DNA of 32,000 nt from Promethearchaeota archaeon. GTDB lineage: Archaea > Asgardarchaeota > Lokiarchaeia > Sigyniarchaeales > SOKP01. The translations under genes and the position numbers were made by a program. Each line of letters opens with the position of its first letter. Position 1 is the first letter of the stretch. Below the pieces are notes generated by a model. That model saw only the letters and a program-made list of their open reading frames with translations. It did no database searches and was not told the DNA's origin. Positions 28,211-32,000 of the stretch are shown piece by piece. Location of the stretch: assembly GCA_030606485.1 (NCBI GenBank), contig JAUWGH010000004.1, positions 90,001 through 122,000 of the forward strand, written 5' to 3'.

Positions 28211-29251
28211 ATGATTAGAGTAGGTATTATGGGAGCAACCGGATATGTTGGGTCAGAATTAGTCAGGATTTTATTACAACACCCAAAAGTAGAATTAAAA
28301 TTATTAGCATCACAAAATCATATTAGATGTAAATATAATTCGATATTTGAGAATTTCAAAAAGATTTGTGAAATTAAATGTGTTGGAAATACTCTTGAAT
28401 CTATGGCGAAAGAAGTAGATGTAATTTTTCTGGCGCTCCCTGATGGAATTTCATCCATACTTGTAACGGAAAGTATTTTAGAAAAAGTAAAAATAATTGA
28501 TCTTAGTTCAGATTTTGATCTTAGTTCAGAAGTCTATAAAAAATGGTATAAAACTGAACATCATAATAGAGATCTTTTGAATAAGGCAGTTTATGGCCTA
28601 TGTGAATTAAAAAGAGAAAGTATTAAAAAATCAACCCTAATTGCCAATCCAGGATGTTATTCAACATGTACTATATTATGTTTATATCCTCTATTGGCAG
28701 AGGGTATTATAAAGGAAAACAGCATTATTATTGATGCAAAATCAGGTATTACAGGGGCAGGACGTACATTAAATCTAGAATTCCTTTTTGGAGAATGTAA
28801 TGAATCAATTAAAGCATATAAAACTACCTCACATCGTCATACACCGGAAATAGAGCAACAATTGAGTGAATTGAGTGGAACTGATATTATTATTACTTTT
28901 TCACCTCATTTGATCCCTGTGAATCGTGGAATTTTGACGACATGTTATGGGAAACTTAAAAATAATTTTGACTATGAAGAGATAAAGGAGATTTATGAAA
29001 ACTATTATTTTTATGAATATTTTATTCGTCTAACGAAAAAAGGAGTATTTCCAGAGACTAAATTTGTAAAGGGTTCAAATTATTGTGATATTGGATTTAC
29101 AATTGAAAATAGAACTGGCAGAATAATAATTGTTGGAGCAATTGACAACCTAATCAAAGGAGCCGCAGGACAAGCCGTGCAAAACATGAATATTATGTTC
29201 GATCTTGATGAAAATATGGGTTTAAAAACAATTCCCATATTCCCTACTTAA
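28211..29251 (+). CDS. argC: N-acetyl-gamma-glutamyl-phosphate reductase (bacterial type)
   Basis: GATGYVG, ANPGCYST (catalytic Cys), DAKSGITGAGR, HRHTPEI, PHLIPVNRGI, VKGSNYCDIG, IDNLIKGAAGQAVQNMN. Confidence 0.93.
   Translation: MIRVGIMGATGYVGSELVRILLQHPKVELKLLASQNHIRCKYNSIFENFKKICEIKCVGNTLESMAKEVDVIFLALPDGISSILVTESILEKVKIIDLSSDFDLSSEVYKKWYKTEHHNRDLLNKAVYGLCELKRESIKKSTLIANPGCYSTCTILCLYPLLAEGIIKENSIIIDAKSGITGAGRTLNLEFLFGECNESIKAYKTTSHRHTPEIEQQLSELSGTDIIITFSPHLIPVNRGILTTCYGKLKNNFDYEEIKEIYENYYFYEYFIRLTKKGVFPETKFVKGSNYCDIGFTIENRTGRIIIVGAIDNLIKGAAGQAVQNMNIMFDLDENMGLKTIPIFPT
28497..28530. repeat. 16-nt direct repeat with 18-nt period inside argC
   Basis: TTGATCTTAGTTCAGA at 28497-28512 and 28515-28530 (DLSSDF-DLSSEV). 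Confidence 0.8.
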
Positions 29252-29300
29252 TTATATTGAAAAAAAACATTGCTGGCATCAAAAAATACTAACAGAAAGT

Positions 29301-29357
29301 ATGCGTGTAATCACACATACCTATATGAAAAAGGGATATAGGAAGACCACCGCGTAA
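29301..29357 (+). CDS. Putative 18-aa leader peptide (MRVITHTYMKKGYRKTTA)
   Basis: ATG 29301 to TAA 29355-29357, spanning helix segments 1 and 2 of the downstream attenuator-like structure; SD weak. Confidence 0.35.
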   Translation: MRVITHTYMKKGYRKTTA

Positions 29358-29393
29358 GTAATAAAAACTATCTTTAAATTCTGTACCTCTGGA

Positions 29394-29428
29394 GCGGGAA
29401 GATGAGCCCTATATCCCGCCTTTTTTTT
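29394..29428 (+). terminator. Bacterial-style intrinsic terminator hairpin
   Basis: 6-bp GC-rich stem GCGGGA/TCCCGC, 14-nt loop, then C and TTTTTTTT (29421-29428). Confidence 0.65.
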
Positions 29429-29453
29429 ATATAAGAACAAATAGGTGAAAAGT

Positions 29454-29534
29454 ATGAATGTATTTTTACAGGATATGCACAATTTAAAAGATGAGGTGAA
29501 ATACATCTTGAAAAGATATACACACCTGTATTAA
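29454..29534 (+). CDS. 26-aa ORF (MNVFLQDMHNLKDEVKYILKRYTHLY), small protein or truncated gene remnant
   Basis: SD AGGTGA at 29443-29448, 5 nt before the ATG; lies immediately after the terminator. Confidence 0.35.
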   Translation: MNVFLQDMHNLKDEVKYILKRYTHLY

Positions 29535-29697
29535 AAAGAATTTTATTTTTTTTCTTAGGAGAATCTAAAAATAAAAGAATATTCTTATTTTTAAATTAAT
29601 CATTTAATAAAATCAAATAATGTAAATGATTTTTCAAGAAATTGGAAAAAAAATCATTTAAAATTAAAATTAACTATTAAAAAAAAGTTGAAATTAA

Positions 29698-30861
29698 ATG
29701 GAATGTAGAGAAAGAGTCCTTACTACTCTAAATTTGGAAGAACCAGATAGGGTTCCAACGCACATAATTGCATTAGACGCGAATAATGTAGATAAGATTC
29801 TAGGAAAACCACAAATGACTGATTTCGACTTGATTGAACAAATGAAGCGTGATAATCCCGATAATTGGATAGCAGAATTGAATAAGTTAGTTGAGAGTGT
29901 AGAGACATCAATTTTTTCTCGAATGGTTGAAGCAGCTGCTCAAATAGGTCTAGATGCAATGCAAGTGGGAATTCTTCCTTTTAAATTTATAAATGAGCAT
30001 GAAATGAGTGATATCTTTGGACGAATCTGGGAAGTGATGAACAATGAAGGTAATTTCTTTCCGTTCTATAAATATGGAACTCTGAATTCGCTCGAAAAAT
30101 GGGAAGTGCTCAAGAAAGATTTAGAAGAGACTTTAACAGATAAATATTGTAAGATGGCCAAAAAATTTTATAGGCGAATTAATAAAAAACATAAGGATAA
30201 GATTTTCGTTTTTGTAACTAACGATTTAGCCGGTATTTTTGAGTCAGTATGGCAAGGAATGGGAATTGAGCATTTTTCAAAGCAACTCCATAAGAATCCG
30301 AGTTTTATTAAAGAAGTATATGATGTTTATGCTGATTTTAACATTGCTTTAGCTAACACTTATATGGATGTAGGTATGGAGGTTTGGATTGAATCAGGAG
30401 ATTTGGCGTACAGATCCGGTCCAATGATGTCGCCAAAAAAATTTAATGATTTGCTTTTGCCTGCTTATAAGAAATTAGTGGATGTAATTCATGAACGAGG
30501 GCAAAAAATTGTACTTCATACCGATGGTCAAATTACTCCTTTATTAGATTTTACAGTAAGTTGTGGTTTCGATGGCCTTCATGCGCTCGAACCAACTGCG
30601 GGAGTTGATTTGGCATTAGTTAAGAGAAAGGTGGGGGACAAACTCTGTCTTTTGGGTAATGTTGATGTTTCACATGTGCTTACAGCTAATGGAACAAAAG
30701 AAGATGTAGAAGCTTGGGTTAAAAGTGCAATTAAAACAGCGGGACCTGGTGGAGGTTATATTTGTTCTGCTACTAATATACATCCAGGTGTTGAACCAGA
30801 AAATTTAAAATGGATGGTTGAGGCAGCACACAAGTTTGGAACATATCCGCTCAATTTATAA
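29698..30861 (+). CDS. Uroporphyrinogen decarboxylase / MtaA-CmuA methyltransferase family protein
   Basis: EEPDRVP, DIFGRIW, ESGDLAY, MMSPKKF...LLPAYK, LHTDG, LEPTAGVDL, LLGNVD, PGGGYIC, NIHPGV. Confidence 0.88.
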   Translation: MECRERVLTTLNLEEPDRVPTHIIALDANNVDKILGKPQMTDFDLIEQMKRDNPDNWIAELNKLVESVETSIFSRMVEAAAQIGLDAMQVGILPFKFINEHEMSDIFGRIWEVMNNEGNFFPFYKYGTLNSLEKWEVLKKDLEETLTDKYCKMAKKFYRRINKKHKDKIFVFVTNDLAGIFESVWQGMGIEHFSKQLHKNPSFIKEVYDVYADFNIALANTYMDVGMEVWIESGDLAYRSGPMMSPKKFNDLLLPAYKKLVDVIHERGQKIVLHTDGQITPLLDFTVSCGFDGLHALEPTAGVDLALVKRKVGDKLCLLGNVDVSHVLTANGTKEDVEAWVKSAIKTAGPGGGYICSATNIHPGVEPENLKWMVEAAHKFGTYPLNL

Positions 30862-31465: not shown

Positions 31466-32000
31466 TTGATACAACATATAAATATTCTAACAACGGGTGG
31501 AATTCCTATTCTTTTCCGAAATTATGGAGAAGCAGAAGTTAGTGAGGAGTTAATTGCAGGTTTCATAAGTTCTATCTCAACTTTTTTTTCACATATTAAC
31601 CATTCAAAAATAAAATCTAGTGAAACTGAAGATAATAAATATTTCTATAAATCTACACAAGATATAATATTTGTAGTAGGTGCAGATAAAAGTGATGATG
31701 ATTATGAAGTTATTAATAAACTGCAATTAATCTCTAAGAAATTTTTACAAACATATGGAGAATTATTTCGAGATAATAAATGGCGTGGTGATAGCACAAC
31801 CTTTAAGAACTTTTTCGGAGTGCTTGATAACATTATAATGGGTTCAATAAAAATTTCGATAATTGGATTCGATGGAGTCGGAAAAACAACTCTACTTCAT
31901 TTAATTTGTGGAAAAGAAATAAATTTAGAATATAGACCAACAATTGCCACAGATATTGCTATCTATGATGGTTTGGGTGGAGATAGGGAAGTTATTTTTT
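31466..32000 (+). CDS. Longin-domain / Ras-superfamily small GTPase fusion (partial, runs off the right end)
   Basis: Not in the ORF track. TTG 31466 after an in-frame TAA; 178 open codons. N-terminal longin pattern (IQHINILTTGGIPILFRNY, EELIAGFISSI, IIFVVGADK, KFLQTY), then IKISIIGFDGVGKTT (G1, from 31865) and EYRPTIATD (switch I). Confidence 0.88.
   Translation, partial: MIQHINILTTGGIPILFRNYGEAEVSEELIAGFISSISTFFSHINHSKIKSSETEDNKYFYKSTQDIIFVVGADKSDDDYEVINKLQLISKKFLQTYGELFRDNKWRGDSTTFKNFFGVLDNIIMGSIKISIIGFDGVGKTTLLHLICGKEINLEYRPTIATDIAIYDGLGGDREVIF

Follow-up and report, generated by a model that had tools for sequence, protein, structure and literature searches.

A conserved structured element behind argC in a narrow Promethearchaeota clade: a candidate RNA ending at a U8 tract

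What function is served by a short, GC-rich and strongly conserved block of DNA that lies directly behind a solitary argC gene in a Promethearchaeota archaeon? In the window, which is the whole stretch of 32,000 nucleotides analysed here and whose numbering is used throughout, the block lies in a 446-nt spacer between argC (N-acetyl-gamma-glutamyl-phosphate reductase; 28211-29251, + strand) upstream and a gene of the URO-D family (29698-30861, + strand) downstream. The assignment of argC comes from Pfam matches to Semialdhyde_dh and Semialdhyde_dhC_1 (E = 2e-60) and from the source names of its homologues. The host genome (G000) is 3.75 Mb in size with 29% GC; its ORF-free gaps average 21% GC, and the element forms a peak of 42% GC. 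The metagenomes in which this DNA was found are from cold seeps and marine sediment. The conserved structured element consists of about 135 nt followed by a U8 tract (29286-29428, + strand), and the covariance model matched it in 11 loci with scores of 175-194 bits. An earlier note had read it as an attenuator-like switch, in which a ribosome translating a leader ORF chooses between mutually exclusive helices and a terminator.

On its upstream side, the element is bordered by a variable spacer (29252-29285, + strand; 7 of 34 sites vary among the 7 homologues) that contains a stretch rich in A/T and resembling a TATA box, TTAATTATATTG (about 29250-61). Variation among the homologues reaches inside this TATA-like box, and the spacer either begins an argC 3' UTR or acts as promoter for a separately transcribed small RNA, the promoter having been read by eye. 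A promoter consensus derived from tRNA upstream regions gave no discrimination, the genome being too AT-rich. On the downstream side, a small ORF (29454-29534, + strand) follows the element, and the URO-D gene has an A/T-rich promoter region of its own, separated from the element by five T-runs of at least 4 in a T-run scan. In the same scan, a T4-A-T8 tract (29541-29553, + strand) stands between the small-ORF unit and URO-D and is likely the terminator of that unit.

Several features of the surroundings were recorded. The argC gene is solitary in this genome, flanked by a gene for a TrmY-like methyltransferase and by the URO-D-family gene. Promethearchaeota with a 68%-identical ArgC (L166, L167) have retained an operon argB-argD-argC-argG, and in more distant Promethearchaeota argC also lies within such an operon. 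The ArgC protein is 59-65% identical to ArgC of Melainabacteria and Clostridia, which suggests a bacterial-type gene. A derivation of the element from a neighbouring gene (argG, ancestral operon) was rejected on zero tblastx signal. Farther downstream, positions 31466-31999 specify a longin-like domain and then a small-GTPase P-loop region, with weak Pfam matches to Fuz_longin_1, Arf and Roc; this putative longin-GTPase fusion would be an Asgard-type eukaryotic signature protein, and fits an Asgard archaeon. At 29286-29294, TACTAAC-AG followed by GTATGC resembles the yeast branch-point and 5' splice-site consensus in reversed order, almost certainly by chance in an AT-rich genome. GC-rich islands of at least 40% GC over 100 nt occur in 158 of the 1587 ORF-free gaps of the host genome; about 38 of them are tRNAs, and the remaining ones are candidates for further non-coding RNAs.

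The individual parts of the proposed switch were all recovered where the earlier note had placed them. Hairpin 1, GTATG-CG-TGT/ACA-CATAC at 29299-29320 (+ strand), has 8 pairs and one C-A mismatch, includes the ATG of the proposed leader ORF and reaches pair probabilities of 0.95-1.0. Segment 1, CCTATAT (29320-29326, + strand), is a local rival for segment 2, with which it forms a 7-bp helix. Segment 2, GGGATATAGG (29333-29342, + strand), is invariant in 11/11 loci and is the 5' arm of a long-range, perfect 10-bp helix, of which segment 4, CCTATATCCC (29408-29417, + strand), is the 3' arm and its partner in the minimum-free-energy (MFE) state of 7/7 variants. The two arms enclose a 65-nt region (29343-29407, + strand) of weak predicted structure and very strong conservation, which varies only at 29353, 29371 and 29374 among the seven sequences; A29400G is a single strain variant, from run X16. 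Segment 3, GCGGGA (29394-29399, + strand), joins 29414-19 across a 14-nt loop as the proposed terminator hairpin, and the U8 tract (29421-29428, + strand) follows, being T8 in 10/11 loci and T6 (TTTTTTAT) in L063. The three competing helices, 1:2, 2:4 and 3:4, exist and are still pairable in all 7 distinct homologues. The 18-codon ORF (29301-29357) does span segments 1 and 2, and its stop lies 13 nt past segment 2.

A first search for homologues, by intergenic BLAST and covariance model R1, returned only two same-genus genomes and two metagenome contigs. A second search, through ArgC protein clusters and then their contigs, added two more diverged lineages, L157/L158 (ArgC 85% identical) and L160-L164 (ArgC 82% identical), in which the gene order TrmY, argC, element, small ORF, URO-D is unchanged. 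The homologue set thus comprises 11 loci with 7 distinct sequences; the element is confined to a narrow Promethearchaeota (Lokiarchaeota-type) clade and is always flanked by a solitary argC and the small ORF. In the sister lineage L159 (ArgC 80%), the spacer measures 165 nt, contains neither the element nor the small ORF, and is homologous only in its URO-D promoter-proximal part. The covariance model gave one match per genome, and among 250 other genomes, 100 from the order and 150 from the phylum, no further homologue was accepted. A scan for exact 18-mers across 185,579 species genomes found only two Promethearchaeota MAGs, probably G002 and G003, and 9 random-looking bacterial matches. Within its own genome the element is single-copy, with no paralogue found by BLAST, by Smith-Waterman comparison with 157 other GC-rich islands or by the covariance model.

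Some apparent matches and absences were set aside. Covariance-model matches that fall within protein-coding sequence, namely genes with a V4R domain and, in G146, an ORF of 368 aa, were not taken as homologues; in L033, L035, L041, L042 and L044 (genera g4 and g11), model positions 71-122 match a conserved coding stretch (…FCSFEAGLLAG…HCFAQE…, V4R-like domain), and these are false positives. An isolated 5' match in G070 (L032) shares CTAAYAGAAAGTATGCG, lacks the 85-nt core and was not taken as a homologue. G001 was rejected as a case of absence, its contig C51 ending 113 nt into argC, and contigs C45/C91 of G002 break in the variable spacer near 29520. Because these contigs break inside argC or in the variable spacer, the missing argC or element in G001 and G002 is regarded as an assembly artefact.

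The element evolves slowly for a spacer sequence. Among the 7 distinct sequences, 10 of its 135 sites vary (7.4%; binomial P(<=10 | 135, 0.2) = 4e-5), compared with 16.5% in the upstream spacer, 20.6% at 29252-85, 22.7% in the spacer 29429-697, 30.3% at argC third positions and 21.5% at URO-D third positions; the value for URO-D positions 1+2 is 5.6%. The element is clearly under purifying selection, at the constraint level of coding positions 1+2. Stems are not more conserved than loops, and two stretches, 29375-29416 (42 nt) and 29328-29352 (25 nt), are invariant; such long invariant stretches, together with loops as conserved as stems, point to a sequence-specific role.

Divergence along the locus is mosaic among strains. 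For L062, divergence is 7.9% over the 5' half of argC (28211-28575) and 0.6-1.2% over URO-D; for L158, it is 11.6% over argC and 2.7% over URO-D (29698-30700). This pattern points to recombination within the locus. The argC 3' half (28576-29251) is also slow, at 1.0-1.9% per genome, and the low divergence of the element could come in part from mosaic recombination.

The substitutions at paired positions are mostly of a kind that RNA helices absorb. In four of the six (C29312T, A29323G, C29353T, C29417T), a Watson-Crick pair becomes G-U on the + strand; A29323G is present in 3/7 distinct sequences, and C29417T gives G-U in both 2:4 and 3:4. The other two are breaks: G29303A disrupts one pair of hairpin 1, and G29418A (lineage G002, L062) disrupts the second pair of 3:4 and, uncompensated, weakens that helix from -9.1 to -4.8 kcal/mol. 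Among these 7 sequences of low divergence, 0 pairs are altered on both sides, and both alternative structures are about 98-99% pairable. Because there are no compensatory changes, covariation does not rank the alternative helices, and support for the fold comes from thermodynamics and from changes on one side of a pair. The homologue search for covariation suggested in the earlier note yielded 11 loci and, at this low divergence, no compensatory pairs.

These changes also bear on the strand. The element appears to read best on the + strand, which we favour from its sequence, although the evidence on this point is not one-sided. On the - strand, the four Watson-Crick-to-G-U changes (29312, 29323, 29353, 29417) would be A-C mismatches; the + strand is further supported by the shared orientation with argC and by the conserved T8. 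Between the argC stop and 29421, the + strand has A-runs and zero T-runs of at least 4, while a transcript of the - strand would meet T8, T6, T5 and T5; at this base composition, the absence of + strand T-runs does not by itself reach significance (P = 0.68), and the - strand T6 is broken in relatives by A29284G. Counting against the + strand, the C-A mismatch of hairpin 1 becomes G-U on the - strand, and G29303A is tolerated only there. A search of sequencing runs for RNA evidence found no RNA run containing the locus; two runs labelled RNA-Seq are probably DNA and do not cover 29279-29456.

Energy calculations place one helix above its competitors. In isolation, hairpin 1, 1:2 and 3:4 have -7.4, -5.3 and -9.1 kcal/mol, respectively. 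At equilibrium, 2:4 has a pair probability of 0.98-0.99, and 1:2 and 3:4 have about 0.01 each, with -30.6 kcal/mol for the 2:4 state versus -26.7 kcal/mol for the alternative. The fold of the whole element is non-random (z = -3.4; 0/200 shuffles equally good). When the 446-nt spacer is shuffled with its dinucleotide composition preserved, 0.45% of the shuffles contain a perfect 10-bp inverted repeat that has 4 or more G/C and arms no more than 100 nt apart; 0/4000 contain it together with an upstream 7-nt competitor. Dropping the G/C condition raises these fractions to 23% for the 10-bp repeat and to 2% for the repeat with its competitor; since the repeat is that common without the condition, it is the G/C content rather than the repeat length that carries the signal. 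In step-wise folding, the 1:2 helix forms first and is displaced by 2:4 after segment 4 is made, and in a longer transcript the U-tract is able to pair with 29322-32. The 2:4 state is the predicted ground state in 7/7 variants, and its energy gap to 1:2 + 3:4 drifts between 2.5 and 7.7 kcal/mol among the homologues, which seems unlike a tuned bistable switch.

The T8 at 29421-28 is the first T-run of at least 4 after the argC stop, and is conserved as given above. Term-seq in four archaea revealed U-rich 3' ends without hairpins, and aCPSF1, including its Lokiarchaeota orthologue, cooperates with the U-tract in termination (PMC8716108). In Sulfolobus, SmAP1 binds U-rich 3' ends of mRNAs (PMC12817955). 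The U8 is expected to be an archaeal terminator. With 8 U in two adjacent U4 tracts closing a transcription unit, the element resembles archaeal intrinsic or aCPSF1-assisted terminators; it differs from ordinary ones, which have no conserved upstream structure, in that the roughly 135 nt upstream are conserved like coding positions 1+2. The arrangement GAAAAA-GGGATATAGG ... CCTATATCCC-GCC-TTTTTTTT, with a stem and a U-run on both strands, is also reminiscent of bidirectional terminators, from which the element differs in its highly conserved 65-nt 'loop' and in the lack of a convergent gene on the - strand.

The element shows no match to an established RNA class. In agreement with the earlier statement that no recognisable riboswitch family fits, Rfam gave zero matches at gathering score in the whole window; at E <= 10 around the element there was only noise, the best match being L20_leader at 15.7 bits against a gathering score of 58.7. 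Searches for tRNAs with and without introns found nothing at the locus, and inspection by eye found no K-turn or BHB motif in the element, no TGATGA or CTGA of box C/D type in 29286-29428, and GCC, not the ACA of H/ACA RNAs, after the lower stem. The element is similar to guide RNAs, tRNAs and Rfam RNAs in its size range and as a GC-rich island in an AT-rich spacer, and unlike Rfam families, C/D and H/ACA guides and tRNAs in having no model match, boxes or K-turn. A coding reading was discarded: no ORF survives on either strand, and a 61-aa ORF on the - strand loses its start in L062. Duplex folding against the start regions of argC, URO-D and the small ORF was no better than with shuffles, and BLAST-level complementarity to potential targets gave only AT-rich chance matches.

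The small ORF encodes 26 aa here and in L063, where it is frameshifted, and 38 aa in most relatives. It is open in all 7 homologues; the common 38-aa form is MRLFLHDMYNLKDEVKDILKRYTTPVLKKNFIFFLRRI, which in the +1 frame extends to about 29570. The first 23 residues are conserved, third codon positions account for 8 of 13 substitutions, and frameshifts affect the 3' part in G000, L063 and L010; no paralogue was found in the genome. The U8 and the following ATATAA make up a TATA-like box, TTTATATA (29426-33), about 25 nt upstream of the small-ORF ATG, a spacing that suggests a leaderless mRNA. Together with this ORF, the element makes up a single insertion/deletion block of about 310 nt: 11/11 loci have both, and L159 has neither. 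There are also direct repeats, in which the 5' part of the element (29296-29333) resembles both ends of the small-ORF unit (29449-29538). The likeness is clearest in L164, where AAAGTATG ... CATACCTGTATTAAAAAG in the element corresponds to AAAGTATG ... ACACCTGTATTAAAAAAG in the small-ORF unit, with CCTGTATTAAAAA common to both; the local alignment is beaten by only 2-14 of 500 shuffles, a marginal significance. These repeats hint that the element may have arisen by tandem duplication with internal deletion.

Two explanations would make the element a control region for what lies downstream. In the ribosome-mediated attenuator of the earlier note, translation of 29301-29357 would choose between the antiterminator 2:4 and the terminator 3:4. 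The geometry does resemble that of the trpL, hisL, pheL and ilvBNC leaders, with a short ORF across segments 1 and 2, exclusive helices, a stem with a U-tract and, here by prediction, a first helix that is made during synthesis and later displaced. However, the start ATG (29301-03) is ATA (G29303A) in L160, L161 and L163, from three samples, and an internal ATG (29325-27) is ATT (G29327T) in five contigs (L160-L164), with the RNA otherwise conserved; the remaining changes in the ORF in L162/L164 are 1 synonymous and 3 non-synonymous. Sequence inspection found no Shine-Dalgarno motif upstream of 29301, and no block of repeated regulatory codons occurs in the peptide, MRVITHTYMKKGYRKTTA. With both ATGs lost, and neither a Shine-Dalgarno motif nor a regulatory codon run present, the ribosome-sensing part of the proposal falls away. 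Nor is the element the 5' leader of a biosynthetic operon: it lies 3' of argC, followed by the 26-38 aa ORF, the five T-runs and URO-D, with no downstream amino-acid operon, and the URO-D orthologues of G004 and L159 have no element. As for the terminator, the window has about as many hairpin-plus-T-run sites as chance predicts (8 found versus 7.6 expected), the 3:4 stem with its 14-nt loop is broken in the G29418A lineage, and in archaea, the domain of this host, U-tract termination without a hairpin is documented (PMC8716108). The sequence comparison appears to have largely refuted this attenuator already, and we give it hardly any credence. Without a leader peptide, the element might instead be a cis-regulatory leader of the small ORF, on a transcript from near 29285 or from argC read-through, in which folds, a protein or a ligand set the U8 stop against read-through through the accessibility of the U-tract, with 1:2 + 3:4 opposed to 2:4, whose extended form can pair the A5 run with the U-tract. 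In favour of this link is the joint presence or absence of element and small ORF as the 310-nt block. They also share a strand, with the U8 placed 25 nt before the ORF ATG and AGGTGA in between in 3/7 lineages, and the pairability of all three helices, the passage through 1:2 before 2:4 and the pairing of the U-tract with 29322-32 in a longer transcript would fit such a role. On the other hand, the small ORF is less conserved than its supposed regulator, with its three frameshifts and a varying SD-like motif, and probably has its own TATA-like box at leaderless-mRNA distance; the energy gap between the states is not constant, and G29418A weakens 3:4 without compensation. Furthermore, U8 alone is a strong archaeal terminator, for which a hairpin dependence is not known (PMC8716108). 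Taken together, these points make a cis-regulatory leader unlikely. A more specific version, an Asgard conditional terminator in which protein-, ligand- or folding-rate-controlled helices gate U8 and couple argC transcription to the small protein, is decidedly unlikely; if true, it would be attenuation-like control in a lineage with none known. We know of no description of an interplay between hairpin and U-tract for archaeal RNA polymerase or aCPSF1.

Two further explanations dispense with an RNA. The block could act as DNA, as protein sites on the small-ORF promoter (a CCTATAT-N9-ATATAGG palindrome and a third half-site at 29408), as a recombination site, or as a mobile relic bounded by TTATATTGAAAAAA and TTTTTTTTATATAA. 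Just upstream of the TATA-like box there is indeed a palindrome of 23 bp, along with the 7-mer in a third copy, and the block acts as an indel relative to L159. The earlier note had itself named a MITE-like inverted repeat as an alternative; this was checked, and the element is single-copy in the host genome and has no target-site duplication, although weak terminal inverted repeats, imperfect over 14 nt, exist (I12). Moreover, CCTATAT is not enriched in the genome (518 found versus about 886 expected), which led us to reject a transcription-factor motif, and the palindrome arrangement is unique. Conservation over 135 nt, including long non-repeated stretches, goes beyond the need of a binding site, and the one-sided changes are G-U compatible, a property relevant to RNA and not to DNA. 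A DNA-level element is thus very improbable. Alternatively, the block could have no function of its own, its conservation stemming from a recent recombination tract or sweep over the argC 3' half and the spacer. The weak divergence of that argC half and the mosaic along the locus would agree with this, but the element falls below adjacent third codon positions in both comparisons, at 3/135 versus 7.5% in the close set (P about 0.01) and 7.4% versus 30% in the wide set, stays 95-97% identical where the ArgC protein falls to 82-85%, and has a non-random structure. We consider an absence of function very improbable indeed.

Our preferred reading, which we hold with middling confidence, is that the element is a lineage-specific structured + strand RNA, serving as the argC 3' UTR and/or as a small RNA (sRNA) of about 140 nt, terminated at U8. 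Transcription leaving argC, and possibly also starting at a weak promoter just past the argC stop, would find no U-tract before 29421, so that the element would form at least a 170-nt argC 3' UTR; it may also exist as a separate transcript or processing product of about 140 nt. As modelled, the mature fold would comprise hairpin 1, the 10-bp 2:4 clamp around the 65-nt region, GCC and the U8 tail, at which archaeal RNA polymerase and aCPSF1 would terminate. The clamp beside the U-tail may stabilise the 3' end and offer a U-rich landing site for Sm-like proteins, and the invariant, mostly unpaired 65-nt region may carry a sequence-specific function, either pairing with a target or binding a protein. 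For the 1:2 and 3:4 helices, the simplest explanation is that they are folding intermediates or by-products of the repeated CCTATAT, not a ribosome-read switch.

The predicted RNA resembles, by functional analogy, the sRNAs from mRNA 3' ends of the bacterial DapZ/CpxQ/SroC type (PMC9438474), in that it lies directly after a biosynthetic gene, shares the mRNA terminator and is conserved above the surrounding spacer. Another system compared was rnTrpL, an attenuator-derived sRNA (PMC7968998). The case also cautions against inferring attenuation from a bacterial attenuator layout that the eye picks out in AT-rich archaeal spacers.

Asgard archaea are the archaeal lineage closest to eukaryotes. 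To our knowledge, their non-coding RNAs are almost uncharted, and sRNAs from mRNA 3' ends have seldom been described in archaea and never in the Asgard lineage. The element offers a clean Asgard RNA candidate, single-copy, with defined ends from the conserved block to U8, present in 11 loci and constrained at coding level. Should it prove to modulate termination or the stability of the 3' end, it would have implications for how U-tract/aCPSF1 termination can be regulated.
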